Source of the DNA: a virus
Lineage: Duplodnaviria > Caudoviricetes
Virus record (IMG/VR): IMGVR_UViG_3300027734_003164
Coordinates: 1-64,000 of that record
Strand: one strand, 5' to 3'
DNA: 64,000 nt
The notes beneath the pieces were generated by a model that was not told the DNA's origin, ran no database searches, and was given only the letters and a program-made list of their open reading frames with translations. Position 1 is the stretch's first letter. The number at the start of each line of letters is the position of its first letter. The position numbers and the translations under genes were made by a program. Positions 3,254 to 60,286 of this stretch are shown piece by piece.

Positions 3254-3313
3254 GATAGAAGTTAAATAAAAAAATATCAAATGAAAATTTGTTATAATTC
3301 AATTATTATTTGC

Positions 3314-5370: not shown

Positions 5371-5772
5371 TTAAAATTCATCTACCGTATTTTCAATTTT
5401 TTCATTATAGTCATCACTAAATTGAATTTTAACAATTCTAACTCTTGCGCCATCACCTCCAAAAAAATATTTTAATTCTTCATTTATTAAATTTGTTAAA
5501 TGATTATTTAATTTATAATCTTTTAATAAACTGTTTTTTAATTCTTTGAACACTGAAAAAATTGTAGTAACTCTTTTATCACCATCAGTAATTTCAACTA
5601 AAACATCCAAATAATCATAGTATTCGCCAACAGAAATCATTTTTCTTTGTCCTGTAATCACAAATTGATATTTAAATTCAATTTCCAATCCGTGAGAAAT
5701 TTCACCAACGTAATCAAAAATTATGTTGCTAATTATTTTATTTATTGACTGTATGTGTTTTTCTGAAATCAT
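5371..5772 (-). CDS. Hypothetical protein
   Basis: 133-aa ORF at the end of the leader-gene operon. Confidence 0.65.
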   Translation of the reverse strand: MISEKHIQSINKIISNIIFDYVGEISHGLEIEFKYQFVITGQRKMISVGEYYDYLDVLVEITDGDKRVTTIFSVFKELKNSLLKDYKLNNHLTNLINEELKYFFGGDGARVRIVKIQFSDDYNEKIENTVDEF

Positions 5773-5777
5773 ATAAT

Positions 5778-15038: not shown

Positions 15039-15070
15039 AAAAAAAGGTGACTCCATCAATGGGAGTCACC
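15039..15070 (-). terminator. Rho-independent terminator overlapping the RNA ligase stop
   Basis: GGTGACTCC / GGAGTCACC 9-bp stem followed by a T run on the minus strand. Confidence 0.8.
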
Positions 15071-16177
15071 AACATTATTTTTCTCCCCGTAGATTAAGTA
15101 GTCAGGATTGATAACTTTACCAACTTTGTGACGCTCACCATCAATATGTTTAACAACAACACCTTCGTGTGGAACTTTAGTCCCCATGATAAAGTTATTG
15201 AATACATGTCTATCTTGTTCATCTTTGGACCACGGACCTAAATAAAGAACAGGAACTCTTGGTAAGTCTAAGACCTCAAAGAGATGTTTTTCATCATGGT
15301 ATGGTAAGTATTTACCATTTAATTCAACATCAAAACCAGCAAACCTTAAACCCTCAAGTCCGTAGTCGTAATTCTTTTGGATTCCATGTCCGTAGATTTC
15401 ACCGTATATTATCAAACCATCACCTAAGTATTCTTCAGAAGCAAATGTTTTTACAAACTTCCATAGTTTATTTTTGATTTCGTAATTATCAGCAATTGTT
15501 CTCCATACATCAGTAGAATAAAACCCTTGAGAATCAGAACCTTTTTCAACGTTGTGGGAACCGTAAACATACTCATACCCAACCCATTTAACTCCAAACA
15601 ATTTTTTAACTCTATCTAATATTGAAAGTTTTTTCTTTCTTACGATACCATAACGAGCGTTAGTTCCGTGAAGTTTACGAGTGATTGTAACTAAGTCCTC
15701 TTCATTAAACATCTCAGGTGCGTTCTTCAAGTTAGGGAACTTGTAGTAGACGTGGAAGTTAGGGTTTTGGTGGTATTTGAATTTTCTACCTCCAACACTT
15801 AACTGAATTGTTTTAACTGGTGGTTCGTATTTAAATATCTCAAGTAATTCCATGCAGTCAGAACCTTCATACCTATATTTTTCAGGAACAAACCCTATTG
15901 GTATTATTAAACATTCAGAATAAACCCCACGAAGTTTCACAGTTCTTACTCGTTGTCCTTTTCGTAAATAACTAGTAACACCCATAGCGTCAGAAAGTTT
16001 CAATGGTATTATTGCATCTGTAGTTGCAACAACAACCAAATCAGTTACTTTATATTCACCTTTTTTAACTATCGTATTCCAACCACCAACCATTGCAAGT
16101 TCTATGTTATCAGCCCCTTCTATTGGTAATATATCACATACTAAACCAACATAACATACACTATTTAAATTTTCCAT
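15056..16177 (-). CDS. ATP-dependent RNA ligase (DRB0094/Rnl2-like family)
   Basis: N-terminal PIEGADNIELA.VGGW..IVKKG; motif I KLHGTN, III YGEIYG, IIIa FAGFDV, IV EGVVVK, V KVINPDYL. Confidence 0.85.
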   Translation of the reverse strand: MENLNSVCYVGLVCDILPIEGADNIELAMVGGWNTIVKKGEYKVTDLVVVATTDAIIPLKLSDAMGVTSYLRKGQRVRTVKLRGVYSECLIIPIGFVPEKYRYEGSDCMELLEIFKYEPPVKTIQLSVGGRKFKYHQNPNFHVYYKFPNLKNAPEMFNEEDLVTITRKLHGTNARYGIVRKKKLSILDRVKKLFGVKWVGYEYVYGSHNVEKGSDSQGFYSTDVWRTIADNYEIKNKLWKFVKTFASEEYLGDGLIIYGEIYGHGIQKNYDYGLEGLRFAGFDVELNGKYLPYHDEKHLFEVLDLPRVPVLYLGPWSKDEQDRHVFNNFIMGTKVPHEGVVVKHIDGERHKVGKVINPDYLIYGEKNNVGDSH

Positions 16178-21223: not shown

Positions 21224-23968
21224 CTATTTTATAATTTGTTTTAAAGTTTCTGTTGATAACTCTTTTGATACAATTCTTACATAATAAATACCTGAAATTA
21301 AAGATTTGTTGTCAATATCATACAAGTTAATACCTTGGTTTATTTTTATTTCTTTTTCAAAAACTTTTGCTCCTTTTGTATCTTTAATTTCAATAATCCC
21401 GTCTCCAATCATATTTTTATTATTTAAAACAACTTGAAACATTCCAGAACTTGGATTTGGAAACGTTGAAAAATATCCTTTTGAATTTCCATTACAAATA
21501 ACATTGATGGGTCCATATTCATCACTAACGCCATCAATATCATATTGCATTAATTTATAATAGTTGTTTCCATCAATCTCATTTTCATCTTTTGCTGTAT
21601 AACTTAATTCTTGAGTTGAATTTCCTGCTGAGGCTAAGGTGGTTAATTTAGACCAATTCTCACCATCTCTTGATTTAAGAACATCAAAGTGAGATGTATT
21701 GTGTTCAGTTGCCGTTTTCCAATTTAAAGTAATAAAATTTTCATTACAAGTTCCGTCAAACGATAATAATTCCACAGGTAATGCTCCGTTTGTTATTATA
21801 TTAAAAAATCTAACTTGAGTTCCACAGTTTGATGAATTTGAAACCGTAACTCTAACGGACCCATCGGTTGTTGTTTGAGGCCAATAAAAAGATATTGATG
21901 GTGTATTAGAGTTTGGTATGTTTGACCAATATGGTGCCGTTATTGATTGAGTGTAATCCCACTGATAGGTTGCGTTTGGAACAGGTGTTATTGAATATGT
22001 TTCTTGAGTTCCAGCAATAATTGTGTTGTTCCCCGACACTGTAGAAACAAATCCAACTGAAGGGTTTACGGTTATTGTTGTTGATGTTGCATTTGAACAA
22101 CCGTTTGATGACACTGTTAGTGTGTATGTTTGAGTTGTTGTCGGTGACGCAAAAGGACTTGGCGCGTTTGGATTTGTCAGTCCTGTAGATGGTGTCCAAG
22201 AATACGTAATTGGTGGTGTTGTATTACAAGATGTAACTATTTGATTAAAAGCCTGACCTCCACCTAAACTTCCACTTGAAATAGTAGTTCCATTACAAGT
22301 GATTGTAAAAGTTGCCGTATTGTCATTCCAAGTTCCTTGAGTTTCAATTAAAAAAGTATAAGGCCCATTTGCTGATGACCCAATAGGTATAACATTTGTT
22401 GTTCCGGTTCCATAATTTCCCCCTGAACCTATTATAGTTCCCAAATTATTATATAATGTCCAACTTGTTTCATCCATAAACCCACCACTTGATATAGTAA
22501 CAACTAAATTTCCAGGAACAGATAAACCACTAACATTAGAATTTAATTGAGTGCTTGGCCCATTACATATAACATTAGATGTCGGAGTTATTGTAACTTG
22601 CGGTATTTGATTTACTGTTATAGTGGTCGAAGTACAACTTGAACTAAATAACCCTGAATTGTAATTTCTTGCAAAATATGTTGTGGTTGTTGAAGGTGTT
22701 ACAGTAATTGAATTTCCTGTTCCAATAAAAGTAGTTCCACATCCACCTGTATACCAATATACCGTTCCAATTGCCCCATTAGCAGTTAAAGTTGTTGATG
22801 TTCCATTACAAATTGTATTTTGTGTTGCCGTTATATATGTTGGAGCAGATGGTGGTGGAGTTGTGCAGATTAAACCAAGTGAGAAAGCACTTGATGTTGA
22901 ATATCCATGAACTAATATGTAGTAGTTTAGTCCAACGGTTGATGTCCATTGATAAGACGCTGATGATGTGGCACATGATGGCCCCATATCATCATTACCA
23001 CCCACACAAGTTAAAGCACTACAACTTGTCCCACTAAAAACTGATATTTTACTATCCCAAGCAGTATTACATAAATAAGCAGTCATAATCTGTCCAGTGC
23101 CCGTAACACGATACCAAACACCAGGTTGAGTTTGTGTAACAGAACAAGTTGAATTTTCTCCTACACCTGAATTTGTGGCATTAACCGTTGTTCCTGAAAT
23201 AATTTGTCCACAAGATATTGATGTTGCATTACAAACTAAATCATTTGCAGGTGCTGCAGGTGCCGAACAAGTAACACAAGTTACTGTTGATGTTCCACAT
23301 GAAGAAGCAGTCCCACAACTTGAATTTGTGTTATAATGAACAAATACGGTTCCTGTATAAGATGACGCCCAATTCAAGGGTGCATTACCATAAGCAACAA
23401 TTGGTCCGTTATATGTTCCTGTATGAACTGTGATGTAACCACCTAAACTATATCCAAATTGATATGTTTGTCCTGCAACAATACCTGAAACTGTAGAATA
23501 TTCACTTTGGAAATTACAGCTAGAAATTGTAACCGTTGTTGGTGTTGAAGGTGCAACAGCAGAACCATATGAAGAAGTATTTGTACAACCTGGTGTTGCA
23601 ACCGTACAATTAGCAAGACAAGTACTACCTAAAGTAGTCGCCGTTCCCGAAACAGGTTGTATGGTGGCAAGTAAAACGGTTCCAACATTATTCACAACTT
23701 GAACTCTCATTTCACTTGGATAAGTTCCCGCTATTGTTCTATAAACTCTAATCGTTTGCCCACTACTTGCGGTAAAATTAAATATTGCAGGCCCTAAACC
23801 TGTCGATAAAGTTATATTACTTAAAACAGTTAAACCATTAACTGAAACTGAAACGGCACCTCCGTTCCAACCATCACCAAAAGTATCAGTAAGTCTTATT
23901 GTGTGGGTGCATTGAGAAATAACAAAACTTGTAAAAAAAACAAAAATCGATAATAATAAATTCTTCAT
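21224..23968 (-). CDS. Large secreted Cys/Thr-rich multi-Ig-domain protein with T9SS type A C-terminal sorting domain
   Basis: Signal peptide; Ig-like repeats (WYTGGCG.T.IGTG.SITVTP..TTTY; YSWTPSTGL); ALPVELLSF, W.TATE.N...F; FPNPSSG...G.Y.VRI CTD. Confidence 0.8.
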   Translation of the reverse strand: MKNLLLSIFVFFTSFVISQCTHTIRLTDTFGDGWNGGAVSVSVNGLTVLSNITLSTGLGPAIFNFTASSGQTIRVYRTIAGTYPSEMRVQVVNNVGTVLLATIQPVSGTATTLGSTCLANCTVATPGCTNTSSYGSAVAPSTPTTVTISSCNFQSEYSTVSGIVAGQTYQFGYSLGGYITVHTGTYNGPIVAYGNAPLNWASSYTGTVFVHYNTNSSCGTASSCGTSTVTCVTCSAPAAPANDLVCNATSISCGQIISGTTVNATNSGVGENSTCSVTQTQPGVWYRVTGTGQIMTAYLCNTAWDSKISVFSGTSCSALTCVGGNDDMGPSCATSSASYQWTSTVGLNYYILVHGYSTSSAFSLGLICTTPPPSAPTYITATQNTICNGTSTTLTANGAIGTVYWYTGGCGTTFIGTGNSITVTPSTTTTYFARNYNSGLFSSSCTSTTITVNQIPQVTITPTSNVICNGPSTQLNSNVSGLSVPGNLVVTISSGGFMDETSWTLYNNLGTIIGSGGNYGTGTTNVIPIGSSANGPYTFLIETQGTWNDNTATFTITCNGTTISSGSLGGGQAFNQIVTSCNTTPPITYSWTPSTGLTNPNAPSPFASPTTTQTYTLTVSSNGCSNATSTTITVNPSVGFVSTVSGNNTIIAGTQETYSITPVPNATYQWDYTQSITAPYWSNIPNSNTPSISFYWPQTTTDGSVRVTVSNSSNCGTQVRFFNIITNGALPVELLSFDGTCNENFITLNWKTATEHNTSHFDVLKSRDGENWSKLTTLASAGNSTQELSYTAKDENEIDGNNYYKLMQYDIDGVSDEYGPINVICNGNSKGYFSTFPNPSSGMFQVVLNNKNMIGDGIIEIKDTKGAKVFEKEIKINQGINLYDIDNKSLISGIYYVRIVSKELSTETLKQIIK

Positions 23969-34412: not shown

Positions 34413-36317
34413 TTATTGTTTTACAATTTTTGAGACTTTAGTTTCTCCGTTCTCCATAGTTAATGTAACTAAGTAAAGACCTCTTTCTAAACTCCCTAAG
34501 TTTTCAACATAGTTATATTCTCCGTTTGGTAATTGAGTGTCAAAGATTGTAATTAACTTTCTTCCAACAACATCGGTTATTGATAGGTTTGCGTTTGTGG
34601 TTTCTTTAACTTCAAATGATATTGTAACCTCATCAACAACAGGGTTAGGGTTTACTGAAATAGTGTTTCCAATTACTTGACCCATATTACTTTTTAATAC
34701 TTGAAGGATTCCGTTTGTTGGAGTTACTGTTAAATCTTTTGATTGGACATTTCCTGCGAATTTTAAAGAAGTATAAAGAGGACTTTCTTCCCAAAGGTTT
34801 TGTGGTTGTTTTGCTATAAATTGTAATTTAACAACCTCATCACCATTTTTTAATGTTTGTTCTCCGTTTGTTATGTCAAATCCACCCCAATCAACTTGAT
34901 TGTTATTAGGATTAACATATGTAATCCATTCCATCGCATTAGATGTAGAATATATGCCTTTAAATTCTAATAGTTCTGAATTGTATTTTAAACCGAACTG
35001 AAGTGATGACAACTCTTCACCGTTAGTGAAAACCTTAACCGGTAATTCAACCAAGTTTCCTGCTTCAACTGTTATGTGAGGAACATTTACTTCAATTGTT
35101 GATGTTGGAAAATCGTATTCAACTTTTGTGTCGATTACATTATAGATTTGTGATTCCAATCCTGGTATTGGTCCAACCAATACTTCAATAGGAGTTACAC
35201 GAGCCATGTTATAACCCGTACCGTTGGCATCTCCAGGAACCATTACATAATATACTACAGAGTCAGGTTGTCCTGGTAATATATCAAATGTAAAGTTAGT
35301 CACACCGGGGATTGTTGATGTATAGTTGGTGTTAGACCCATTGATAGTTGCAAATTCAGATGTGGTAAAGAATTTAACATCTTTTGTATTGTTAGGCCAT
35401 TGTGTAAATCTACCTGATACTCTACCGAACACACCCCATACGTCAGATATAGTTGTATTATTAGAACCATTCACATCTGCTGTGAAGTAATCAAATCCAG
35501 TCATGGTTCCATTTCCTAAAACCCACTGATTGATTAACTGAGCATCCGTTGAAGATATAATATTACCAACACCCATAGTGTCTCCTTGAATTGCAAGTCT
35601 TACATCCCAATATGTTGTATCTAACGGTACTGATATATTAAAGTCACCGTTTATATCTGTAACATAAGAAGAATGTTGTGTCCAAGTGTTTCCACCGAAT
35701 GGTCTTCTTTGTAATGCTAAATTTAAATATTTAGCCGGTGAACCTGTTACATTTGTAAACGTTCCGTGAAATGCGAAGTTCACAGGAGTAAATACACCAC
35801 CATAGTTATGAACACTTAATGTTGTATCCATACCGTTTTGTTTTGCGGCATATGGTGTAAAAGTTTGTGGTCCTGTCCAAGTTAAGTTAGAGATAGACGC
35901 CAAGTTACTGAATGTTGCCGCTGGAGCATGAACAAAGGTGATAAGAAATCTTTCACCGTTTGGTATTGTATATGTCGCACTTGGCCCTGTATAAACTAAA
36001 GTAATTGTGATATAACCATTTGCAGTATTTGTAATATACTGAAGGTCTAAGTTCGCAGATGGTCCGATTAATGAAACAGTTGCATTTGTAAAAGCAACAT
36101 TATCATAGAATACTCTAAACTGAACTCCCGCAAATTTTGTAAGAGTTGTATTTTGTAAAGTAATCTTCGCATCCGTTGTACCTTGTGCTGTTGTTCCAAC
36201 TTGATACTGTGAAGCAATAATTCCCCACAATCCGTTTGATGGCGCCACTGGTACTTGTGTATAACCAATAAATGGTAAAAATAAAAGTAATAAGGTTAGG
36301 TAATAGATAGTTTTCAT
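34413..36317 (-). CDS. Secreted cohesin - dockerin-like - cohesin protein with T9SS type A C-terminal domain
   Basis: FAGVQFRVFYDN and VELPV...LSSLQFGLKYNSELLEF (cohesin-type); ADVNGSNNTTISD (dockerin/EF-hand-like); VNPNPV.D...DVVGR...G.Y.V.L CTD. Confidence 0.75.
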   Translation of the reverse strand: MKTIYYLTLLLLFLPFIGYTQVPVAPSNGLWGIIASQYQVGTTAQGTTDAKITLQNTTLTKFAGVQFRVFYDNVAFTNATVSLIGPSANLDLQYITNTANGYITITLVYTGPSATYTIPNGERFLITFVHAPAATFSNLASISNLTWTGPQTFTPYAAKQNGMDTTLSVHNYGGVFTPVNFAFHGTFTNVTGSPAKYLNLALQRRPFGGNTWTQHSSYVTDINGDFNISVPLDTTYWDVRLAIQGDTMGVGNIISSTDAQLINQWVLGNGTMTGFDYFTADVNGSNNTTISDVWGVFGRVSGRFTQWPNNTKDVKFFTTSEFATINGSNTNYTSTIPGVTNFTFDILPGQPDSVVYYVMVPGDANGTGYNMARVTPIEVLVGPIPGLESQIYNVIDTKVEYDFPTSTIEVNVPHITVEAGNLVELPVKVFTNGEELSSLQFGLKYNSELLEFKGIYSTSNAMEWITYVNPNNNQVDWGGFDITNGEQTLKNGDEVVKLQFIAKQPQNLWEESPLYTSLKFAGNVQSKDLTVTPTNGILQVLKSNMGQVIGNTISVNPNPVVDEVTISFEVKETTNANLSITDVVGRKLITIFDTQLPNGEYNYVENLGSLERGLYLVTLTMENGETKVSKIVKQ

Positions 36318-45559: not shown

Positions 45560-45636
45560 TGGTGGTCCCACCTGGGTTCGAACCAGAGACCTACGCATTA
45601 TGAGTGCGGTGCTCTAACCTGCTGAGCTATAAGACC
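45560..45636 (-). tRNA. tRNA with CAT anticodon, probably Ile2 (lysidine) rather than Met; CCA encoded
   Basis: GGTCTTA/TGGGACC acceptor, GCTC D-stem, loop CTCATAA, TTCGAAC T-loop, ACCA end; lacks initiator GGG/CCC anticodon stem. Confidence 0.85.
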
Positions 45637-45643
45637 AAAATAA

Positions 45644-45823
45644 TTATAATAGATTTTTAAAAAACTGCGTCCATTTTTCAATTGCCGGTTCTAACAAAAT
45701 AATTGAACCCATACAATATAAAATAGACATCCAATCAACATTAGTTTTGAAAAACTGATAGACACAAACCACACCCAATAGAGTAGTTAATATCCCAAAA
45801 ATAGTATAAATGTGTTTTTTCAT
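45644..45823 (-). CDS. Small two-TM protein (59 aa)
   Basis: Not in the ORF track. MKKHIYTIFGILTTLLGVVCVYQFF... Confidence 0.55.
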   Translation of the reverse strand: MKKHIYTIFGILTTLLGVVCVYQFFKTNVDWMSILYCMGSIILLEPAIEKWTQFFKNLL

Positions 45824-45847
45824 ATATTAATTTTTTAAATCTTTTTG

Positions 45848-45919
45848 CGGTCCATGCGAGAATCGAACTCGCGGCTCATCCGTGACAGGGATGAATGTTA
45901 GCCACTACACCAATGGACC
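45848..45919 (-). tRNA. tRNA-Asp(GTC)
   Basis: GGTCCAT/ATGGACC acceptor, CATCC-CTGTCAC-GGATG anticodon arm, G discriminator; CCA not encoded. Confidence 0.9.
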
Positions 45920-45924
45920 TATTT

Positions 45925-46203
45925 TTATATCAAAGCGTCCCATTCAGAAACCACAAATTCAAGTTTTAAAAATCCTTCAACGGGAATATAGGTTACTTGA
46001 AGACCTCCTGTTCCCATACTCATTTCTGTTTGTATAGCTTCAGTTAAAAGTTGTCTTGCCGTTTCTCTAATCTCACCTTGACAAGGAATCTTTTCTTCAG
46101 CACTTGACCATTCCCAACCAAGAGCTTTCATAGTTTTATGAACTTTTTCAAAGTCAAACCAATCCATTATGTTATCCACCGCTTTTCTTTGTTCCTCTGT
46201 CAT
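45925..46203 (-). CDS. Hypothetical phage protein
   Basis: IMDWFDFEKVHKTM..L.WEW; TATATTTG at 46208-46215. Confidence 0.7.
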   Translation of the reverse strand: MTEEQRKAVDNIMDWFDFEKVHKTMKALGWEWSSAEEKIPCQGEIRETARQLLTEAIQTEMSMGTGGLQVTYIPVEGFLKLEFVVSEWDALI

Positions 46204-46226
46204 AATACAAATATAAGAATAATTTT

Positions 46227-46496
46227 TTATAAAGACTGCACTTGTTCCATAACTCCTGTAACCTCATCAGGATTTAAATAACCAATCACATCACTTGTAA
46301 CAGGAGTTTCATATGTTAGATTACCTTCTTTGTCTAAAACTGCAATTTCAAACAAACCATCTTTTCCACCATATGAATATGTGTGAGATACAACACTAAC
46401 TCCAAATCCATTTTCAAACATCATTCGAGAACGAACACCTGACATATATGGTTCATCAGATAATTTTTCAAATTCTAAATCTTCAAATTTTTTCAT
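46227..46496 (-). CDS. Hypothetical phage protein
   Basis: FENGFGVSVV...SYGG..GLFEIAVL...Y.TP.T.DVIG.L. Confidence 0.75.
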   Translation of the reverse strand: MKKFEDLEFEKLSDEPYMSGVRSRMMFENGFGVSVVSHTYSYGGKDGLFEIAVLDKEGNLTYETPVTSDVIGYLNPDEVTGVMEQVQSL

Positions 46497-46513
46497 AACT
46501 TTTAATTTTTTTG

Positions 46514-46619
46514 TAGTCAGGACAGGATTCGAACCTGCATAGTGCCTTTTTCACTTGATTATCTTATGTCGAAATAAGAACTGGGAACACCAGTGCGATA
46601 CCATTCCGCTCACCTGACT
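46514..46619 (-). ncRNA. tRNA-like RNA (106 nt) with aberrant anticodon arm and double-hairpin variable region
   Basis: AGTCAGG/CCTGACT acceptor, GCG/CGC D-stem with GG loop, GCAGG-TTCGAAT-CCTGT T-arm. Confidence 0.7.
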
Positions 46620-46695
46620 ATGTCCTCGTCTTTCCGAGATGTCAATACGGATATTTTGTGTACAATTCAGGACTCTCGTATTGCTTCCTTAGTTG

Positions 46696-46769
46696 TAGTT
46701 AATACTGGACTCGAACCAATGACCTATTCCGTATCAGGGAATCGCTCTAACCAACTGAGCTAATTAACT
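46696..46769 (-). tRNA. tRNA-Ile(GAT)
   Basis: AGTTAAT/ATTAACT acceptor, ATTCC-CTGATAC-GGAAT anticodon arm, TTCGAGT T-loop. Confidence 0.9.
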
Positions 46770-46913
46770 ATGTTTGTATTTAAAAGAATTTTGGTCAACC
46801 ACTCGCGTCCCACCAATTTATTGTATCAAACTTTCTGTAGTTCAAACGATTAAATCTCCTACTACTCATTTTCAACTCACTTGCCTAAGCCTTGTCCGTT
46901 GTAAATTCTTTTG

Positions 46914-46988
46914 TGGTATGGGAGTGGAATCGAACCACCGGCACAGGAATTTTCCGTTTCCTTGCTCTACCTACTGAGCTACCACACC
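46914..46988 (-). tRNA. Atypical tRNA-Phe(GAA)-like with 8-nt anticodon loop lacking U33
   Basis: GGTGTGG/CCATACC acceptor; AGGAA-ACGGAAAA-TTCCT; extra C between T-stem and acceptor. Confidence 0.6.
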
Positions 46989-47096
46989 AATTATTTGTAA
47001 TTAGTAGTTGATACACACTCTCGTTTCACCATCTTGTATCAACAGGTTAATGCACTTTACGAGTTTCCCTTTTCTTACAATCACAATATTTTTAAA

Positions 47097-47105
47097 TCAA
47101 AGAAC
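47097..47105 (-). promoter_or_regulatory. boxA-like antitermination motif GTTCTTTGA
   Basis: Lies in the leader of the tRNA array; identical 9-mer at 54899-54907. Confidence 0.45.
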
Positions 47106-47120
47106 TTTTTTCTCTTGTTG

Positions 47121-47155
47121 TGGGGGTGAGACCACCATCACATTTTCTCACCCCC
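47121..47155 (-). other. Strong 5-prime leader hairpin of the tRNA operon
   Basis: GGGGGTGAGA / TCTCACCCCC 10-bp stem just below TATATTTG (47169-47176). Confidence 0.65.
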
Positions 47156-47168
47156 GTTGTTTGTTATA

Positions 47169-47176
47169 CAAATATA
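47169..47176 (-). promoter_or_regulatory. Bacteroidota-type TATATTTG promoter driving the tRNA/ncRNA array
   Basis: TAnnTTTG consensus; TTTG-like element about 20 nt upstream. Confidence 0.65.
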
Positions 47177-47224
47177 TGTAGTTTATTTTGATTTACCAAA
47201 TCTTTTTTAAACTTTTTTTAAAAT

Positions 47225-47255
47225 AAAAAACCCACCTTTTTTTGAAGATGGGTTT
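47225..47255 (-). terminator. Rho-independent terminator
   Basis: AAACCCATCTT / AAGGTGGGTTT followed by a T run. Confidence 0.75.
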
Positions 47256-47278
47256 CTAAAATATTTCAGATTGTAATA

Positions 47279-47596
47279 TTACATTCTTGAACCTAATCTA
47301 CTTTCTAAGTCTCTTAATTCATCTCTTTTTGATGTATAAGTTCCAAAGGTGTCATCTTCATCGTGTGCGCCATAACCTTTTTTAAGTCTTGCCATAATTG
47401 AACTTGCAACTTCATTTGGTTTTTCAACAATAAACTTAGCTAATGTAATCATTTCGTCATTCCCTTTTTCAGAAAATTCAAAAGTTGCGAATATATCATC
47501 AAGAATGCTATTGATTTCTCTTCTATCGTTTTTGTCTTCTTTGATTACACGTCTAACAATACGTGATAAATCTCTTTCAGTTAATCTATTTCTCAT
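47279..47596 (-). CDS. RLTE-leader hypothetical protein
   Basis: MRNRLTERDLSRIVRRVIKE; TATTTAT at 47612-47618. Confidence 0.75.
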   Translation of the reverse strand: MRNRLTERDLSRIVRRVIKEDKNDRREINSILDDIFATFEFSEKGNDEMITLAKFIVEKPNEVASSIMARLKKGYGAHDEDDTFGTYTSKRDELRDLESRLGSRM

Positions 47597-47636
47597 AATA
47601 ATATTTTTATTATAAATATATCGTTAATTGAAAAAA

Positions 47637-48134
47637 TTATTTAATCTCAAAAGCACATCTCATAATTTTTTTTGTTTTAACCGAATCTTCGAAGTTTCCA
47701 ATAACAACACCATCTTTGATTGTGAATGCGTGTTGTCTGACAAGAACAAAGAATGTTCCTTTAGGGTTTTGTTTGATGAAAGTTCCAACTGTCATTTGTC
47801 TTAATTTGGTTTCTCCTTTAATTGTAACATTATAAGACAAAGAATTAATCAATGTAGAACTTTTTCTAACCCCAACAGGATAAACTTTTTTGTAGTTTAC
47901 AGTCGTTCTATTGTCAGCCATTCTTACAAGTTTACTTACAGTCCCATAAGTTCCTTTTTTTGGTTTTCTACCAAATTTCTCAGCAACGTACTTATGTGCG
48001 TTGTCATATGGAATGTCAAATGCCGATGCAAATGCTCTAACGACGCAGTCGGCTCTTTCTGATTTTGCAATCACAGATTCTGAATAACCTTGGATTGCTT
48101 TTGATGTGGCTTCGTATGGTAGTTTGTTTTTCAT
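47637..48134 (-). CDS. Hypothetical phage protein (possible papain-like Cys/His motif)
   Basis: DCVVRAFA......YD.AH...HAFTIKDGV; TATATTTG at 48139-48146. Confidence 0.6.
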   Translation of the reverse strand: MKNKLPYEATSKAIQGYSESVIAKSERADCVVRAFASAFDIPYDNAHKYVAEKFGRKPKKGTYGTVSKLVRMADNRTTVNYKKVYPVGVRKSSTLINSLSYNVTIKGETKLRQMTVGTFIKQNPKGTFFVLVRQHAFTIKDGVVIGNFEDSVKTKKIMRCAFEIK

Positions 48135-48218
48135 AATACAAATATACGAAAAATATTTAATTCAAAAAAATCTGATAAAATTTTTTATAAAAATGTTTGG
48201 TGGTTTAAATAAAATAAC

Positions 48219-48226
48219 TATCTTTG
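48219..48226 (+). promoter_or_regulatory. Bacteroidota-type promoter TTTG-N19-TATCTTTG
   Basis: TTTG at 48196-48199 and TATCTTTG at 48219-48226. Confidence 0.75.
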
Positions 48227-48265
48227 TATTGTAATCAGTTATTAATCATTTAAAAAATTAAAGTC

Positions 48266-48709
48266 ATGAAAAGTTTGTTTGTAAGTTTCTTGTTTTCCGT
48301 TATTAGTTTTATTTCATTTAGTCAGAGTGTTATTCTTGAATATAAGCAATTTAATTCTTTCACCAGTGATAAAAATTTTAATGTTTTAACACCATCTGAA
48401 GTTTTACAGAACAAAGATATTAAAACTTACCAAAGTGAGTTATGTAATATTAAGTATGAAATTATGATAAATGAAAAAAAGATTTTAATTTTTAATCATG
48501 GGGATTTAGTTGGTTGTGAATATTTGAAATCTTTTGAAAAAACGGATAAAGAAATAAAATTTTCATTTTTAACTCAAGATTGGTATGAAACAGAAAAAAA
48601 ACTTACATCATTTTTGGTAAACCTTAACACACATACAACATTAGTATATAGTAATACCGAAAATGGTTTGGTTGGTCTTATGATAAATAATATGGGAGTT
48701 AGTGAATAA
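48266..48709 (+). CDS. Secreted/periplasmic hypothetical protein
   Basis: Signal peptide ending SFS-Q. Confidence 0.7.
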   Translation: MKSLFVSFLFSVISFISFSQSVILEYKQFNSFTSDKNFNVLTPSEVLQNKDIKTYQSELCNIKYEIMINEKKILIFNHGDLVGCEYLKSFEKTDKEIKFSFLTQDWYETEKKLTSFLVNLNTHTTLVYSNTENGLVGLMINNMGVSE

Positions 48710-48716
48710 CTCCCAT
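48692..48716. terminator. Inverted repeat between convergent genes
   Basis: ATGGGAGTTA-GTGAA-TAACTCCCAT. Confidence 0.7.
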
Positions 48717-48746
48717 TTATATTTTATATATTTATTCAATTAAAAA

Positions 48747-49532
48747 TTATTTACCAATTTGCGCTTTCCAAGTAGACCTTAAACTACCAAGACCGTCACA
48801 AAAATAAGAAACAACACTGTCTGCTAAATTTTTGTTCATTTTAGTCAAATTGGCACTCCTAAAAGCTTGGGAAAAATTTTTGTTCGATGCCACCCTACCA
48901 ATTTGTTCATTGGGTTTAGATTGAAGTACGTTACTCATAACATAGTGGTATGAAGACATATTTGCCGATTTCAAATCATCCAAATCTTTTGTAATTGCAG
49001 CACTATAAGCTCCGTTACAATTAACAGTATAATTTATACTACCGGGAGTAACGTTGGGGTAAGCACTAATACTTAAATCTAATAGGACATAATCTCCACC
49101 ACTAGTTCCAAATTTTATAGATGAAATCGTTGCCTTTACCGGTGTACCTGTAAACTTACTTGCCACTGTATAACTACTACCATAACCAACAGTTAAAAGT
49201 TGGTTTCCTGATGGGTCTGTTACTGAAAATTTTTGCCCTTGGGTAACTGCCGGTCCAGGAGCTGTTGCGGTTTTTGCACTTTTGTCCAAGTTTTCAGGTT
49301 TTATTGCGTTTGTCTTAACCCAATCAATGTCTTGTTGTTTGGTTAACTCAGTCCAAGTTTTACCCTCATCTCTACTAGTGTAGTATTTGTTCCCTTGTAC
49401 TTTATATTTAATTTTACGACCATCACCTTCCCAATTATAAATTGCCTGTTCTGACAAATATTGTCTTGATGTAGCGTTTTGATGCATATTAAGTATTCTA
49501 CTTTTTTCTTCTTCTGAAATTAAAAACTTCAT
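48747..49532 (-). CDS. KFLISEEEK-leader hypothetical protein
   Basis: MKFLISEEEKSRILNMHQNAT; TATTTAT at 49565-49571. Confidence 0.75.
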   Translation of the reverse strand: MKFLISEEEKSRILNMHQNATSRQYLSEQAIYNWEGDGRKIKYKVQGNKYYTSRDEGKTWTELTKQQDIDWVKTNAIKPENLDKSAKTATAPGPAVTQGQKFSVTDPSGNQLLTVGYGSSYTVASKFTGTPVKATISSIKFGTSGGDYVLLDLSISAYPNVTPGSINYTVNCNGAYSAAITKDLDDLKSANMSSYHYVMSNVLQSKPNEQIGRVASNKNFSQAFRSANLTKMNKNLADSVVSYFCDGLGSLRSTWKAQIGK

Positions 49533-49665
49533 AATCATTTTGTTTTATTTTTTATTATTTAAATATAAATATAGAGTTGAATAAAAAAAAAAACTAATAA
49601 AGTTTTTTTTGGTTTAATTTTTATGTGTATATTTGTAGAAATAATCATTTAAAAAAATAAACCTC

Positions 49666-50082
49666 ATGAAAACACTACTTTTAACATTCGGTCTTTTATT
49701 GTCCACTTTAAGTTTTTCTCAAAAAATTATAATTCATGTTTTTGAAAAACAAGAAATGGTTTGTGAAAGAAAAACAACTTTGGATTCTGTCTATTCAAGT
49801 CCTGATTATAGTTATGATGTTGATTCCACTTATACACGTTACGTGTTAGATTTGGATGAAAAAACTTCTACATACTTTGTTAATAATGTAGAAAAAAGTG
49901 TTCTTCCAATTGAATACGAAGATTTTGGTGATGATGTTTTAAAAGTTAGTATTCTTGAATATGGTTTTGATTATGGTTTGTTGGTGAATACAAAAGATGA
50001 ATCCGTAATGTGGTATTGGTTTACTGATTACATGACAACTGTGAAGAAAATTTCAAAGTGTCGTTTTGAAAAAGCCTCTTAA
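49666..50082 (+). CDS. Secreted/periplasmic hypothetical protein
   Basis: Signal peptide ending SFS-Q; TATATTTG at 49628-49635. Confidence 0.7.
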   Translation: MKTLLLTFGLLLSTLSFSQKIIIHVFEKQEMVCERKTTLDSVYSSPDYSYDVDSTYTRYVLDLDEKTSTYFVNNVEKSVLPIEYEDFGDDVLKVSILEYGFDYGLLVNTKDESVMWYWFTDYMTTVKKISKCRFEKAS

Positions 50083-50083
50083 T

Positions 50084-50115
50084 AAAAAAACCCCGTCTTT
50101 TCAGGTGGGGTTTTT
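50084..50115. terminator. Bidirectional terminator
   Basis: AAAAAAACCCC...GGGGTTTTT. Confidence 0.8.
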
Positions 50116-50123
50116 AATTTGTA

Positions 50124-50531
50124 TTATTTTTGACTTGGTGTCGATTTTTTATAATTTTGAACATTATTGTTCATTTCAGTTAATTTAGTTTTTAGTGCGT
50201 CCATGAATTTTTCTGTTTGACCTGCAACCCTAAAGTTTCCTTGTAATCCATTTCCACCCATAAATATTGAAACCATCTCATCAATATTTGTAGAAACGTT
50301 GGAAGTGCCTTTGAGCCCTCTCAGATTTCCGTCTGGCATTTTTGATGCCCCTGTTAAATAAACATAATCTTGATTTGCATCATATCTTATACTAACAGTA
50401 ATATTACCATATGATAATTGGATAGTGGATGGTTTTTTTACTGCGGTATTAGGAGTTGGTGCCTGCTCATTAATAACACGTCTAACAATACGTGCTAAGT
50501 CTGATTCTGTAAGTCTTATAATTCTTTTCAT
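50124..50531 (-). CDS. RLTE-leader hypothetical protein
   Basis: MKRIIRLTESDLARIVRRVINEQ. Confidence 0.75.
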   Translation of the reverse strand: MKRIIRLTESDLARIVRRVINEQAPTPNTAVKKPSTIQLSYGNITVSIRYDANQDYVYLTGASKMPDGNLRGLKGTSNVSTNIDEMVSIFMGGNGLQGNFRVAGQTEKFMDALKTKLTEMNNNVQNYKKSTPSQK

Positions 50532-50555
50532 TTTTTTTGTTTTTTATTTATTTTA

Positions 50556-51092
50556 TTATTTTTGAGTTGGGATATATTCTTTTCCTTTTTTTATTAAAAT
50601 CCCTCCCATGCTTTGAGTTGTTGTATCAGAAAATTTAGTTACAATTCCTGTTGTGTGAATCCCTAATTTTGGTGTTGCTGAACCAACTATCAAAGTTCCT
50701 GTTAAATAAGCGAATCCATCTCCACCTATTACAAATTTTTGAGCCCCAGTTGGTCTTAGTGTTCCTTCACCAGCGGTTCCACCCAATTCTATACTAACCA
50801 ATTTATATGGTAAATAAGATGGGTTTTTAGTTATTTCTTTTACGGTGTCACGACTACTATTATCTAAAATTCGAAAAGTTGTTAGATAATCCGATTTAGC
50901 ATAAGCCTCTTTTGCTGGAACATCTACAGTTGCACCTTGTTGATTTTTTATTTTCTTATAAGGTATAAAAATTTCAGGAGAGTTAGTGCTTTCTTCCATC
51001 AAAAAATGTCTTGATTTTTCTTCAATTATTCTATTTTCCAACATCAAGTTTGATTGTTGCATGTGTCTAATTTTGCTATAACTTCTATTCAT
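50556..51092 (-). CDS. MNRSYSKIRH-leader hypothetical protein
   Basis: Start moved to MNRSYSKIRHMQQSNLMLE; TATTTAT at 51111-51117. Confidence 0.7.
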   Translation of the reverse strand: MNRSYSKIRHMQQSNLMLENRIIEEKSRHFLMEESTNSPEIFIPYKKIKNQQGATVDVPAKEAYAKSDYLTTFRILDNSSRDTVKEITKNPSYLPYKLVSIELGGTAGEGTLRPTGAQKFVIGGDGFAYLTGTLIVGSATPKLGIHTTGIVTKFSDTTTQSMGGILIKKGKEYIPTQK

Positions 51093-51128
51093 AATTTTAT
51101 TATTTAATATATAAATATACCAACAAAC

Positions 51129-51157
51129 AAAAAAAGGTGTTGTTTCCAACACCTTTT
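51129..51157 (-). terminator. Rho-independent terminator after the second tRNA cluster
   Basis: AAAAGGTGTTG-GAAA-CAACACCTTTTTT. Confidence 0.8.
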
Positions 51158-51166
51158 AATTTTGAT

Positions 51167-51236
51167 AAGTCGCAACGGGATTCAAACCTGTGACACGTCC
51201 ATAAATGGATTGCTCTACCAACTGAGCTATGCGACT
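51167..51236 (-). ncRNA. tRNA-like RNA with truncated anticodon arm (no readable anticodon)
   Basis: AGTCGCA/TGCGACT acceptor, GCTC-AGTTGGTA-GAGC D-arm, TCCA-TTTA-TGGA mini-arm, T-loop TTTGAAT. Confidence 0.7.
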
Positions 51237-51261
51237 TATACCATCTATTAACCTACCTTAA

Positions 51262-51387
51262 TTATAATTCATTTAATTCTGAAGATAAAGCTTCTTTTTC
51301 TTCATATTCAAAAAATTCTTTCATGTATTGAAAATAATCTTCTGAGTTAATAAAATCATAATGTTGTTGTTCAAATATTTCTTCCAT
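51262..51387 (-). CDS. 41-aa acidic peptide between tRNAs
   Basis: MEEIFEQQHYDFINSEDYFQYMKEFFEYEEKEALSSELNEL. Confidence 0.55.
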   Translation of the reverse strand: MEEIFEQQHYDFINSEDYFQYMKEFFEYEEKEALSSELNEL

Positions 51388-51403
51388 AATTATTTTTTTT
51401 TTG

Positions 51404-51476
51404 TAGTCCCATCAGGGTTCGAACCTGAAAGATTTCTTTAGAAGAGAAATATGTTATCCAATTACATCATGGGACC
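51404..51476 (-). tRNA. tRNA-Arg(TCT)
   Basis: GGTCCCA/TGGGACT acceptor, TTTCT-CTTCTAA-AGAAA anticodon arm; TATATTTG promoter at 51497-51504. Confidence 0.9.
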
Positions 51477-52473: not shown

Positions 52474-52725
52474 TTATCTCAACTTTCTTTTTAATTCATC
52501 AATTATATTTTCTAACCTTCTAACTTGATGTTTAACCAAATCTTTGGCTTCCTCAATTTTTCTTGAATCCCCTCTTTTTGTTGCGGCATCTAATTCATCT
52601 AAAGAGCCAGATACTCTTCTACATGTCCCTCTGAAATCTTCAGCAACTTGATTTATACTTTCGTTAATTGTTCTTTTAACAATTTTATTTAAATCAGATT
52701 CACTTAGTCTAACTATTTTTTTCAT
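52474..52725 (-). CDS. RLSE-leader hypothetical protein
   Basis: MKKIVRLSESDLNKIVKRTINE. Confidence 0.75.
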   Translation of the reverse strand: MKKIVRLSESDLNKIVKRTINESINQVAEDFRGTCRRVSGSLDELDAATKRGDSRKIEEAKDLVKHQVRRLENIIDELKRKLR

Positions 52726-52746
52726 TTTAATATATTAATTTATTTA

Positions 52747-53115
52747 TCACCAGGTTCTGCAAGCCCAATATCTTGGTTTCCATCTTGGGCCAGGATTATC
52801 GCAATTGTGTCTTGCTCTAAATGAACGTCTCCTTTCAGGATTGTTCTTTTTAATCACCATTCGTTTTCCTTTTGCTGATTTTCCACCAAACCCAAAGTTC
52901 ACTTTAACAACCTTTCCTTTGTCGTTTTTAACGTATACCTTGAACTTTTTGATGTCCCCTTGCATAATCTTACCAAGTTGTACTTTTCGTCCCTGATACT
53001 CCGCCTCATGTAGCAAGTTTATTTCTTCAACATTTCCGTAAATGTCTTCATAAATAAAATCCTGATGGAATGATTCTTCAATTAAAATTTTTTTAATTAT
53101 TGATTCTATATTCAT
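52747..53115 (-). CDS. Basic phage protein with I.K.IL.E leader
   Basis: MNIESIIKKILIEE; EAEYQGRKVQL...KKFKVYV...KVNFG...NPERRRSFRARHNC...RYWAC..W; TATTTAT at 53120-53126. Confidence 0.75.
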   Translation of the reverse strand: MNIESIIKKILIEESFHQDFIYEDIYGNVEEINLLHEAEYQGRKVQLGKIMQGDIKKFKVYVKNDKGKVVKVNFGFGGKSAKGKRMVIKKNNPERRRSFRARHNCDNPGPRWKPRYWACRTW

Positions 53116-53912: not shown

Positions 53913-53944
53913 ACCACAAAGATATATAAAAAAATGAATTGCAC

Positions 53945-53976
53945 AAAAAAATGGATAATAATATTTTACTATCCAT
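53945..53976 (-). terminator. Terminator downstream of the large ncRNA
   Basis: ATGGATAGTAA / TTATTATCCAT followed by a T run. Confidence 0.7.
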
Positions 53977-54010
53977 CAATTTTTTTACCGGTGGCTCCAT
54001 TAAAAAAAAA

Positions 54011-54830
54011 CGCTGAGATTACACGTTTGTGTGAGAACCTTTAGAGTCATTATTGTTTCTACTCTTATCCACCATCTTTTGAATGGTATTTCTCAGTGAC
54101 GATTATTTAGGTGAATCACTCCTTGAGGTCTAAACTACTCTCTTATTACTCAACTCTCTTCGAGGATGCCTCCCCAACTAATCCTTGCGGGATTAGAGGT
54201 CTTTTGTAAAAATACACTCAGCCTTGGGAGCTTTATGTGCCGTGAACAACTCACGACTATGTAGTCACCTTTCGATTAGACCTGACGGACACTTTTCCTT
54301 ATTTAAAATTAATAGTTAATAATAATTAAGTTTTGTGTCGTGGATTGTGAAAGTAGTGGTCCGTCACGGGCTCTATTATCTTTTGAACAATAGAATACAC
54401 AACTACTCTCTGAAATGTCCCCATTTCCATATTTCAAGACTACTTCGAAACTAACTCCTTGGTGGGAGTCGGTCAAGGTCAATAACAGCACCACCTGTAC
54501 ATCAACATACCTTTCGGTTTTAAGTATCCTCTAATAATGGAACTCGCAATAAAAGTGTTGGAACACTTTGTTTTGCAAAATTCCTACGAGTTATTCCTAT
54601 TGGTGTTCCCACCTCAATTAGACGACCCACATCGCCCAATCATCTAACCACTTTCCCTACAGCGTTGCCCTCGGTACTAAAGGTTAAACGGTATCCCGCT
54701 TGTGTACTCGACCTCGATTATCCGAAGACAACCAAGACGCAAATCAATTACACTTTTGATTCACTTTATCCCACTTTCGTGGTTTATTTTAATGGACCAT
54801 ACACGGCCCATTGAACTCTTCGTTTCACAA
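54011..54830 (-). ncRNA. Large (about 800 nt) ornate structured RNA, GOLLD-like
   Basis: No credible ORF; GC-richer than flanks; many GNRA/UUCG hairpins; repeated GAGTAG motifs; AT-rich linker at about 54295-54335; own promoter, boxA-like leader and terminator. Confidence 0.7.
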
Positions 54831-54898
54831 ATTTTAAAGAAAAGGGGGTTAATCTTTTTTTTTTAAATTTTGTTTGAACAATTTGTTCGTTTTAAATT

Positions 54899-54907: not shown

Positions 54908-54962
54908 GTTTGTGATTTGAATACTGAGTATCTTTCATCACCTATAAGTTTCAAATCTTTTA

Positions 54963-54993
54963 CAAATTTATGTATTTAATTTGAGACTGTCAA
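54963..54993 (-). promoter_or_regulatory. Promoter TTGACA...TAAATTTG for the large ncRNA
   Basis: TTGACA upstream element and TAnnTTTG at 54963-54970. Confidence 0.65.
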
Positions 54994-58817: not shown

Positions 58818-59168
58818 CTATTTCCAAAATAATTGTATTATTAAAATTCCTATCGCCAAAATTAAACAAACTATGGTTTTAAGTGTTAGTGGTTCTTTAA
58901 AAATTAACCAACTTAACCATGTAAAAACAACCGCCCCAACACTAAACCCAATCAACCTTGAAGGCCACATTTGACCATTAAACGCTATTATCATGTTTTT
59001 TACAGAATACATAAATAACATAGATATTGGTATTCCCATCAACACGGTTAACCAATAATTATTTTTTATCCATTCATATTTTAAAGGTCCTTGAAGTTGA
59101 AAGAATGTTGACACTTGAGCTAAAAAACCAAAGAAAATCCCCACTAATAACGCCCATCCATTAACCAT
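58818..59168 (-). CDS. Small four-TM membrane protein (DMT/SMR-like size)
   Basis: Four hydrophobic segments; F..EP.T.KT..CL.LA. Confidence 0.6.
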   Translation of the reverse strand: MVNGWALLVGIFFGFLAQVSTFFQLQGPLKYEWIKNNYWLTVLMGIPISMLFMYSVKNMIIAFNGQMWPSRLIGFSVGAVVFTWLSWLIFKEPLTLKTIVCLILAIGILIIQLFWK

Positions 59169-60286
59169 TATTCCTCTTCTCTGTATTCTTTTAACAACTC
59201 TTCATTTGTAACTGTTCCGTATTTACCGCTCAGTTCATCTACGTTTATTTTGGTATTCATTTTCATGGTAATCTCCATTAATGTTTCCGTACTTTTAAGT
59301 GATTTTATAATTTCTAAAACAACTTTATATGAATCAGCGTTAGATGCCGGTCTTCTATCTTCAATATACCCTTTCCAATTTTCGGCGGTTGATTTTGGGA
59401 TTCTAATTGATGCCCCTCTATCACCAACACCATAACTATATTTTTCAATTGATTGTGTTTCGTGTTTTCCTGTAAGTCTTAAATTATTTTCAGAACCATA
59501 ATTTTTAATATGGTCATGATGTCTCGAACCAAATGTATTGAAAATTGCCTGAAAATATTCATATCCACCTAGTGTTCTCATTCTTTCATTTGAAAAATTG
59601 GTATGCATCCCTGAACCATTCCAGTCACCTTTAATTGGTTTTGGATGTAAAATTATTTCATAGTTGTACTTTTCTGAAAGTCTATGTAAAAAATATCTTG
59701 TCATCCATAAATCATCGGCAGCCTTTAAACTTCCTTTAGAAAAAACTTGGTATTCCCATTGTCCTAATGCGACTTCAGCATTAATACCTGTTATTTCCAT
59801 ACCATACATTAAACATAACGCCATGTGTTCCTCAGCAAAACCCCTTCCAACAACATTATGTCCAACTCCACAATAATATTTTCCTTGGGGTTCTAAATGT
59901 GGGGTTTCGTGGCCTAAGATATTATTTGTTTTTGAATTTTTAATAAAATATTCTTGTTCGAAACCAAACCACAAATCTTCTTGGTTTTCAACTTTTGACC
60001 TAATGTTTGATTCGTCGGGTGTACCGTCTGAATTTAATACTTCACATAAAACATATACCCTGCTATTTTCTAAAGGAAAAGATTTTTGAGTATAATATCT
60101 TACAGGTTTTAATATTTTATCTGAATTTTCTGTGTTTGCTTGATTTGTTGATGACCCATCGAAACTCCATTCTGGAAATTTGAACTCATTCACATTTGTA
60201 TTAATTTCTTCAACTTTTACTTTACTTCTAAGGTTTGGTTCTGGAGTATATCCATCTAACCATACATATTCTAAGGTTACTTTCAT
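59168..60286 (-). CDS. glnA: Glutamine synthetase (short GSII-like form)
   Basis: EYVWLDG..LRSK, WSFDGSST, GFEQEY, EVALGQWEYQV, HPKP..GDWNGSGMHTNFS, RLTGKHET, RGASIRIP, EDRRPASN. Confidence 0.9.
   Translation of the reverse strand: MKVTLEYVWLDGYTPEPNLRSKVKVEEINTNVNEFKFPEWSFDGSSTNQANTENSDKILKPVRYYTQKSFPLENSRVYVLCEVLNSDGTPDESNIRSKVENQEDLWFGFEQEYFIKNSKTNNILGHETPHLEPQGKYYCGVGHNVVGRGFAEEHMALCLMYGMEITGINAEVALGQWEYQVFSKGSLKAADDLWMTRYFLHRLSEKYNYEIILHPKPIKGDWNGSGMHTNFSNERMRTLGGYEYFQAIFNTFGSRHHDHIKNYGSENNLRLTGKHETQSIEKYSYGVGDRGASIRIPKSTAENWKGYIEDRRPASNADSYKVVLEIIKSLKSTETLMEITMKMNTKINVDELSGKYGTVTNEELLKEYREEE

Follow-up and report, generated by a model that had tools for sequence, protein, structure and literature searches.

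This study concerns a 64-kb stretch of viral DNA (positions 1 to 64,000 of the IMG/VR virus record IMGVR_UViG_3300027734_003164), here called the window, and an RNA gene of the GOLLD family that lies on its minus strand, together with the leader that precedes this gene. All coordinates are positions in the window. GOLLD RNA was reportedly described by Weinberg and colleagues in 2009. In the first-pass annotation of this DNA, about 820 nucleotides (nt) at 54011-54830 had been marked as free of genes, richer in GC than their surroundings and encoding either a GOLLD-class RNA or a new giant RNA. Indeed, the longest open reading frame (ORF) within 54830-54011 has 61 amino acids (minus strand), and the GC content of the RNA region is 0.40, compared with 0.28-0.29 in the flanks and 0.31 in the window as a whole. 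When the whole window was scanned with Rfam 15 at the gathering threshold, GOLLD (RF02032, gathering score 150 bits) was the sole match other than transfer RNAs (tRNAs). The match, at 54410-54010 (-), reaches 335 bits, more than twice the gathering score, with an E value of 2.6e-95, and spans the entire model (positions 1-416 of 416). The RNA therefore belongs to a known family, as one half of the annotation had it, and the alternative of a new giant RNA was wrong.

RF02032 describes the conserved 3′ half of GOLLD only, so the upstream 400 nt needed a separate test. Homologues were collected by scanning IMG/VR for the 3′-domain motif GTTGAGTAAT-N4-GAGTAG, which yielded 50 viral loci, and the segment 54950-53900 was compared with these loci by BLAST. 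Apart from the closest relatives, whose alignments differ, the homologues align from query positions 139-143 to 937-963, mostly ending at 944-950. These limits define a conserved unit of 808 nt at 54812-54005 (-), so that the span first proposed was nearly exact. Both domains are conserved end to end, from the P1 hairpin through the last hairpin, in 25 other distinct viral sequences. The AT-rich linker that had been noticed at about 54295-54335 is real and is the least conserved segment of the RNA (Table 1), aligned to an unstructured portion of the RF02032 model, and the recurring GAGTAG motifs are conserved GOLLD junction sequences (GAGUAG in the RNA). We conclude that 54812-54005 (-) is almost certainly a full-length, two-domain member of the GOLLD family.

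It is extremely improbable that the region is not a stand-alone RNA gene, being instead a group I or group II intron, an RNase P RNA, a long 5′ untranslated region or riboswitch of the gene downstream, or a degenerate coding region. GOLLD is the only Rfam family found, also when the 5′ half and the leader were scanned permissively (E up to 1), which returned the edge of GOLLD and no other family; a described intron or RNase P is therefore excluded, and the GOLLD identity survived this check. Substitutions among the homologues are compensatory in helices and not codon-patterned, and the longest ORF has no more than 61 amino acids. In homologues a U-tract or a tRNA marks the end of the unit, and the gene downstream has a promoter-like box of its own (TATCTTTG, just before its ATG at 53912). 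The Rfam scans and the covariation counts given below effectively refute the intron, RNase P, untranslated-region and coding readings. The same Rfam scan gave no match to ROOL in the window.

The account that we favour, and hold to be very probable as a whole, is that a large, AT-rich Bacteroidota phage carries a full-length GOLLD RNA, which would form a cage and be made from its own host-type promoter with a boxA leader like that of ribosomal RNA (rRNA). As an RNA it is one more ordinary member of a family already known; the rRNA-style leader is the unusual part.

Table 1. Features of the GOLLD unit and its surroundings, in order of transcription. env-38 is the GOLLD RNA solved by cryo-electron microscopy (cryo-EM; Kretsch et al., 2025), after which loops (L), helices (P) and inter-subunit bridges (B) are named; bp, base pairs.
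Feature	Positions	Strand	Remarks
Putative promoter	54963..54993	-	-33 TTGACA at 54993-54988; Bacteroidota-type -7 box TAAATTTG at 54970-54963
Leader hairpin GUGAU...AUCAC	54912..54941	-	Inner GAUAC/GUAU stem; local fold -6.9 kcal/mol
boxA-like element GTTCTTTGAAA	54897..54907	-	Only exact copy in the 64-kb window
Perfect hairpin GAACAA-A-UUGUUC	54876..54888	-	Just 3′ of boxA; read from the sequence
GOLLD 5′ domain	54411..54812	-	62-100% identity in 25 other viral sequences; P1 hairpin (54812-54791) first; cap in env-38
P1 loop GUGUAU with GUACAC	54799..54804 with 54702..54707	-	GUACAC 95 nt downstream; joint covariation
GOLLD 3′ domain	54010..54410	-	RF02032 match, 335 bits
Loop CAAAAG, taken as L14 (B6)	54380..54385	-	CAAAA invariant in 26/26 while the stem covaries
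Linker-closing helix, 10 bp	54355..54365 (5′ strand) with 54284..54293 (3′ strand)	-	Covaries
AU-rich variable linker inside the 3′ domain	54294..54348	-	Lowest identity of all segments; variable length
GUGA with UCAC	54265..54268 with 54099-54096	-	Pseudoknot across long-range helix
Hairpin CUAAUCC-CGCAA-GGAUUAG, taken as P21a/L21a (B8)	54178..54196	-	Central loop dinucleotide self-complementary
Hairpin GGGGA-GGCA-UCCUC, taken as P21b/L21b (B9)	54162..54175	-	Loop GC invariant in 26/26, stem varies
U9 tract	54001..54009	-	Directly after the last GOLLD hairpin
Terminator-like element	53943..53977	-	12-bp AU-rich hairpin at 53977-53950, then U7 at 53949-53943

Both domains have a conserved covarying fold

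After duplicates and truncated copies had been dropped, the alignment comprised 26 distinct full-length sequences with 62-100% identity to the window. RNAalifold finds 187 consensus pairs in this alignment, 124 of which have at least one double-sided compensatory change. In our own count, 67 of the 97 pairs in the 5′ domain are doubly compensated and 96.9% of the alignment cells are paired; the corresponding values for the 3′ domain are 56 of 87 and 97.7%. As a control, the 3′ partner of each helix was slid by 1-3 columns and pairing was recounted. The slid versions of the 5′ domain have 35-44% of cells paired and 19-29 doubly compensated pairs, and over the two domains the slid versions reach 35-46% paired compared with about 97% in the actual fold. 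Covariation among homologues, which the first-pass annotation had named among the checks on its assignment, is thus abundant in both domains. The 5′ region has been described as less conserved across the GOLLD family (PMC12286853), whereas in the clade of the window it is as conserved as the 3′ domain.

Six of the seven hairpins that had been picked out from the letters of the window belong to the consensus fold supported by covariation. These are AATGGGCC/GGTCCATT, which is P1, the first helix; CCAC-GAAA-GTGG; GGTTGTC-TTCG-GATAATC; GGTG-GGAA-CACC; ACC-GAAA-GGT; and CTAATCC-CGCAAG-GATTAG. The seventh, ACAC-AAAC-GTGT, is not conserved, and the last hairpin of the family is CGU-(9 nt)-GCG in its place.

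Three further pairings cross the nested fold or join distant parts of it. The helix that closes the linker varies in concert on its two strands, from GACGGAC/GUCCGUC in the window to GGUGGAC/GUCCAUC, AACGGAC/GUCCGUU, GACAGAC/GUCUGUC, AGGAGAC/GUUUCCU and AGGUAAC/GUUACCU in homologues. It crosses the outer stem of the first 3′-domain hairpin (54410-54405/54354-54349), which covaries as well, and the two therefore form a pseudoknot. The loop of P1 and its downstream complement occur as GUGUAU/GUACAC in 16 sequences, GUAUAU/GUAUAC in 8 and GCUUAU/GUAAGC in 2; to judge from this joint variation, the pairing is a predicted tertiary or inter-subunit contact. The third pairing is found as GUGA/UCAC (15 sequences), UCGC/GCGA (4), UUGA/UCAA (3), and GUGU/ACAC, UUGC/GCAA and UUGU/ACAA (1 each). 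The full-length alignment of 26 sequences covers the 5′ domain, which is absent from Rfam, backs these three crossing or tertiary pairings and helps to read the contacts seen by cryo-EM.

Putative promoter, boxA-like leader and 3′ end

The putative promoter, picked out by a consensus scan, lies about 150 nt upstream of the RNA, directly after the stop codon (55003-55001) of a 47-amino-acid ORF. The consensus of the -7 element in Bacteroidota is TAnnTTTG, and TTGACA with TAAATTTG fits sigma-70-like spacing as well as this consensus. The first-pass annotation had ascribed to the RNA a host-type promoter of its own, a boxA-like leader and a terminator, and the homologues bear out the first two. 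A TAnnTTTG box stands upstream of boxA in 23 of the 24 boxA-bearing homologues, at a distance of 26-33 nt in 12 of them and 54-67 nt in 9. The exact 9-mer GTTCTTTGA precedes P1 by 60-112 nt in 24 of the 26 homologues, the background rate in these loci being 0.008 per 300 nt, and one of the two homologues without it is cut off by the end of its contig. The tRNA arrays of the window are preceded by no boxA, and the sole exact copy precedes GOLLD.

Between promoter and boxA, the leader hairpin of the window occupies the position that boxB has in rRNA leaders. Many other homologues have a different small hairpin at this site, with the compensatory variants TCGGA/TCCGA, TTCGG/CCGAA and CAGGA/TCCTG; in four homologue subclades a clear hairpin directly 5′ of boxA was not seen. 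On the other side of boxA, where the window has a perfect hairpin, two homologues (L041 and L005) have a CGAC/GUCG hairpin. Many homologues (for example L044, L038, L045, L014 and L027) also have a second block, (T)TATCC[G/A]TTCA, 8-14 nt after boxA; this block, whose place would be that of boxC in an rRNA leader, is absent from the subclade of the window.

In rRNA operons, boxA recruits NusB-NusE and builds an antitermination and chaperone complex, of which NusA and NusG are also members. We examined 60 leaders upstream of 16S genes, drawn from bacterial-genome loci that were fetched with a 16S signature serving as a Bacteroidota probe and are mostly, not solely, from Bacteroidota. The exact 9-mer GTTCTTTGA occurs in 19 of the 60, between -88 and -222 relative to the 16S start, which is about 38-fold the background rate, and the variant GTTCATTGAAA occurs in 6 more, mostly of marine Flavobacteriaceae. 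With variants allowed, the extended consensus of the 16S leaders is GTTC[T/A]TTGAAAATATTGAA, mostly at -85 to -135; it is common to the GOLLD leaders, several of which read ACGTTCTTTGAAAATATTGTA. The spacing from -7 box to boxA is 19-65 nt in half of the rRNA leaders, which brackets the values for GOLLD. The boxA-like leader, conserved in the homologues and matching the rRNA leaders of Bacteroidota, is thus well founded at the level of sequence.

The likeness to an rRNA operon extends over several features. The boxA is identical to that before 16S in Bacteroidota and lies downstream of a host-type -7 box and ahead of a stable RNA that is long and structured, with a small hairpin beside it. In several relatives the -7 box occurs twice, at a distance of 85-93 nt, which resembles the tandem promoters P1 and P2 of rRNA operons, and in relatives a tRNA often follows GOLLD in the same unit. 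The window differs from an rRNA operon in having one -7 box, not two, in making a product that is not rRNA, and in the absence of a leader-trailer pairing of the kind that forms an RNase III processing stalk.

These observations suggest a way in which the RNA may be made. Host RNA polymerase would initiate near 54955 at the host-type promoter of the RNA, producing a leader of about 140 nt (the hairpin, then GTTCTTTGAAA) that would imitate the boxA leader of Bacteroidota rRNA operons. The boxA would load the Nus-factor rRNA antitermination complex onto the polymerase, and this complex would carry the polymerase through the long, hairpin-dense untranslated template and assist co-transcriptional folding. 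The leader would then be removed, leaving the stable RNA. We put the chance that the boxA leader works through Nus factors at about even. The broader proposition, that in phages of Bacteroidota, including relatives of the largest phages, the host rRNA machinery makes GOLLD and boxA with Nus factors is required to finish it and to fold it correctly for assembly into cages, we hold more tentatively, at somewhat under an even chance. If it were true, GOLLD would be a phage-made pseudo-rRNA regulated like rRNA, and its biogenesis would for the first time be linked to a defined host machine. Among the papers searched, none was found that links GOLLD to boxA, to antitermination or to an rRNA-type leader, and the boxA leader provides, for an RNA described in 2009, a testable statement on how it is made and regulated.

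Alternatively, the RNA could be a true GOLLD in which GTTCTTTGAAA does not recruit Nus factors, a reading that we consider rather unlikely, though not negligible. In that case, the element may mark where the mature RNA is cut from its precursor, be bound by a phage protein, or belong to an extended promoter or discriminator region that phages took over from strong host promoters simply for high expression. Such roles would sit well with the variable distance from boxA to P1 (60-112 nt), with a post-boxA sequence that differs between subclades, with the second conserved block that many homologues have after boxA, and with the lack of the element in GOLLDs outside Bacteroidota phages. However, the match to rRNA leaders reaches beyond the 9-mer, to GTTCTTTGAAAATATTG; the distance from the -7 box is similar to that in rRNA leaders; and a long untranslated, hairpin-rich transcript is the type of template that needs boxA antitermination in rRNA operons.

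Several points weigh against an rRNA-like leader acting through Nus factors. What is shown is the sequence and the position of boxA only, and its function is inferred from sequence identity and position. The -7 box of the window lies 55 nt from boxA, unlike the 26-28 nt of many relatives, and TAnnTTTG, being short and AT-rich, often arises by chance in this genome. The GOLLD of a 642-kb phage (L001) has no boxA within 300 nt. That of Acinetobacter phage Herod has no boxA leader, so that the leader is not required by GOLLD in general. In 19 homologues, the energies of leader-trailer duplexes were no better than those of shuffled sequences (mean z +0.33), and an rRNA-like processing stalk was rejected on this ground.

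At the 3′ end, transcription may terminate either at the U9 tract or at the AU-rich hairpin with U7 further downstream. Most homologues have a U-rich run after the last GOLLD hairpin. The fold of a 116-nt stretch with this hairpin has z = -2.45. A scan with a consensus terminator missed the hairpin because it has fewer than 3 G-C pairs. The terminator that had been claimed is therefore present as a terminator-like element. Beyond it, the 0.9 kb downstream of GOLLD can be aligned with the homologous locus L005 through ORFs, with 66% identity, and has the look of coding sequence; in this comparison no conserved structured RNA was seen to trail GOLLD.

Likeness to env-38 and possible function

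The GOLLD RNA env-38, of 833 nt, was solved by cryo-EM as a D7 14-mer nanocage in which each half-shell has a cap made of residues 1-420 and a ring made of residues 421-833, the variable linker being disordered and pointing inward within the cage (Kretsch et al., Nature 2025, PMC12286853). At 808 nt, the RNA in the window is of similar size and divides likewise into a 5′ and a 3′ domain, each of about 400 nt, with an AU-rich linker. By eye, it also begins with the same P1, and its 5′-domain blocks follow one another as in env-38. Common to the env-38 construct and our alignment are, in order, a GAAAG hairpin, GAUAAAGUGGAAU, GAGCUUGAGUAGGCAAGUGAGAUAU and GAGGGUAACAC, then GUUGAG, a GGAA-loop hairpin and AAUAAGAAUAACUCAUAG; this order was seen in the window and in the homologue L043. 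An exact match to a 25-mer of env-38 was not found in IMG/VR. env-38 sits downstream of a tRNA-Met (PMC12286853). The copy in the window differs from known GOLLDs in having no tRNA inside its linker or abutting it.

The loops that make contacts between subunits in env-38 are either conserved here or altered only with self-pairing kept, at the loops we assign to bridges B6, B8 and B9. Adenosines of L14 form the inter-subunit A-minor bridge B6 in env-38 (PMC12286853), and the loop taken as L14 keeps its adenosines throughout the alignment (Table 1). Switching between GC and CG at L21a was the evidence in the same paper for the self-kissing bridge B8, and L21b (B9) was reported to be highly conserved (PMC12286853). 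Of the central L21a dinucleotides in our alignment, 12 are GC, 11 are CG and 3 are AU, the last being a third variant beside the two reported; all are self-complementary, as a symmetric kissing contact needs.

We therefore favour, as probable by homology, the formation of a cage-like multimer. The RNA of about 808 nt would assemble without protein into a closed hollow multimer, of 14 copies if it follows env-38, with the 5′ domains as caps, the 3′ domains as rings and the AU-rich linker turned inward. Some features of the comparison count against this reading. Multimerisation is inferred solely from homology to env-38; the two RNAs were compared by eye, over about 330 printed bases of the env-38 construct, and the comparison is qualitative; and the names L14, L21a and L21b were given to loops of the window from the text of the paper, not from its figure or coordinates. 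In addition, for the kissing loop L20-J13/15 (B7), the candidate loop-linker complementarity is no better than in shuffles, and the only change at the variable positions of the candidate loops is from U to C, which leaves pairing with any invariant G possible. ROOL, another large phage RNA that occurs near tRNA islands and forms RNA-only cages (PMC12286853), is unrelated in sequence and fold.

As to what the RNA might do, our best guess, a doubtful one, is that the cage holds or shields a translation component during infection. The tRNA array and RNA ligase of the window and the abutting tRNA-Met in relatives are the grounds for this guess, and they point to it weakly. Less likely still, GOLLD might be not a container but an abundant decoy or sponge, its targets being, for example, host anticodon nucleases, other RNases, RNA-targeting defence systems or ribosomes, with cage geometry mattering for stability only. 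An RNA ligase and a tRNA array in the same window are the usual marks of conflict over tRNA cleavage, and the cryo-EM paper cites a ribosome pull-down with GOLLD (PMC12286853), both of which would suit a decoy. Against it stands the conservation of the half-shell contacts, which speaks for selection on the closed assembly itself.

Related phages, neighbouring genes and host

GOLLD is present, and unannotated, in two of the largest known phage genomes. In the 642-kb genome LR756502.1 (L001) it lies at 3422-3828 and scores 275 bits, and in the 635-kb genome LR745206.1 (L002) it lies at 2861-3266 and scores 287 bits. Both copies are flanked by tRNAs and are missing from the annotations of the records, and in L002 a boxA lies between the upstream tRNA-Met and GOLLD. 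The paper describing these huge phages makes no mention of GOLLD. Matches to the 3′ domain were also found in cultured Acinetobacter baumannii phages, namely Herod, Bestia, AM24, YMC13/03/R2096, P577, Ab15 and vB_AciJM_313. In Herod (L174, MW316732.1), GOLLD spans about 896-1685, with an Rfam match at 1308-1676 (225 bits). It occupies a gap of about 790 nt, left unannotated, that tRNA-Asn and tRNA-Asp flank, and has the same kind of P1 hairpin. These cultured phages offer laboratory systems for knock-out genetics of GOLLD.

The homologues of the window copy, which come from IMG/VR viral contigs, likewise mostly keep company with tRNAs. In six of them a tRNA, mostly tRNA-Met, takes the place of the U-rich run and begins no more than about 12 nt from the 3′ end of GOLLD, and in eight others a tRNA-Met lies 85-550 nt upstream of GOLLD. 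The window has seven tRNA genes at 45560-51476, on the same strand as GOLLD and 2.5-9 kb downstream of it. Two tRNA-like genes, unreported by ARAGORN, were found by Rfam at 51167-51236 (-) and 46514-46619 (-), with 47.6 and 37.2 bits; the latter spans 106 nt and may carry an insertion or an intron.

The host of the phage is indicated by its proteins. Two large proteins, at 21224-23968 (-) and 34413-36317 (-), end in a C-terminal sorting domain of the type IX secretion system (Por_Secre_tail), a Bacteroidota feature; a cohesin domain is present in one and an Ig-like CHU_C-associated domain in the other. Phage proteins may, to judge from this, be exported by the host type IX secretion system. 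The 504-amino-acid protein encoded next to GOLLD has homologues only in uncultured phage genomes of 635-735 kb, and those huge phages were predicted, in the paper describing them, to infect Bacteroidetes. The sorting domains and this kinship support a giant Bacteroidota phage as the probable source of the window, which is in agreement with the host proposed in the first-pass annotation.

A megablast comparison of 20 kb of the window with a phage collection gave no match. Among ten large proteins of the window, comparison with PHROGs identified only an RNA ligase and one family of unknown function. The RNA ligase, at 15056-16177 (-), belongs to PHROG 968 and has Pfam RNA_ligase and a PHA02142 OB-fold. 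Besides the tRNA array and GOLLD, the window also encodes a glutamine-synthetase-like protein, at 59168-60286 (-). Three copies of an element of about 85 nt (47544-47621, 50472-50557 and 52660-52747) stand at the starts of minus-strand genes; in the homologue L006, a stretch that lies about 500 nt downstream of GOLLD matches this element with 72-75% identity. On another homologous contig (L029), ARAGORN reports a phage-borne transfer-messenger RNA at 5439-5846, about 1 kb downstream of GOLLD and on the opposite strand.

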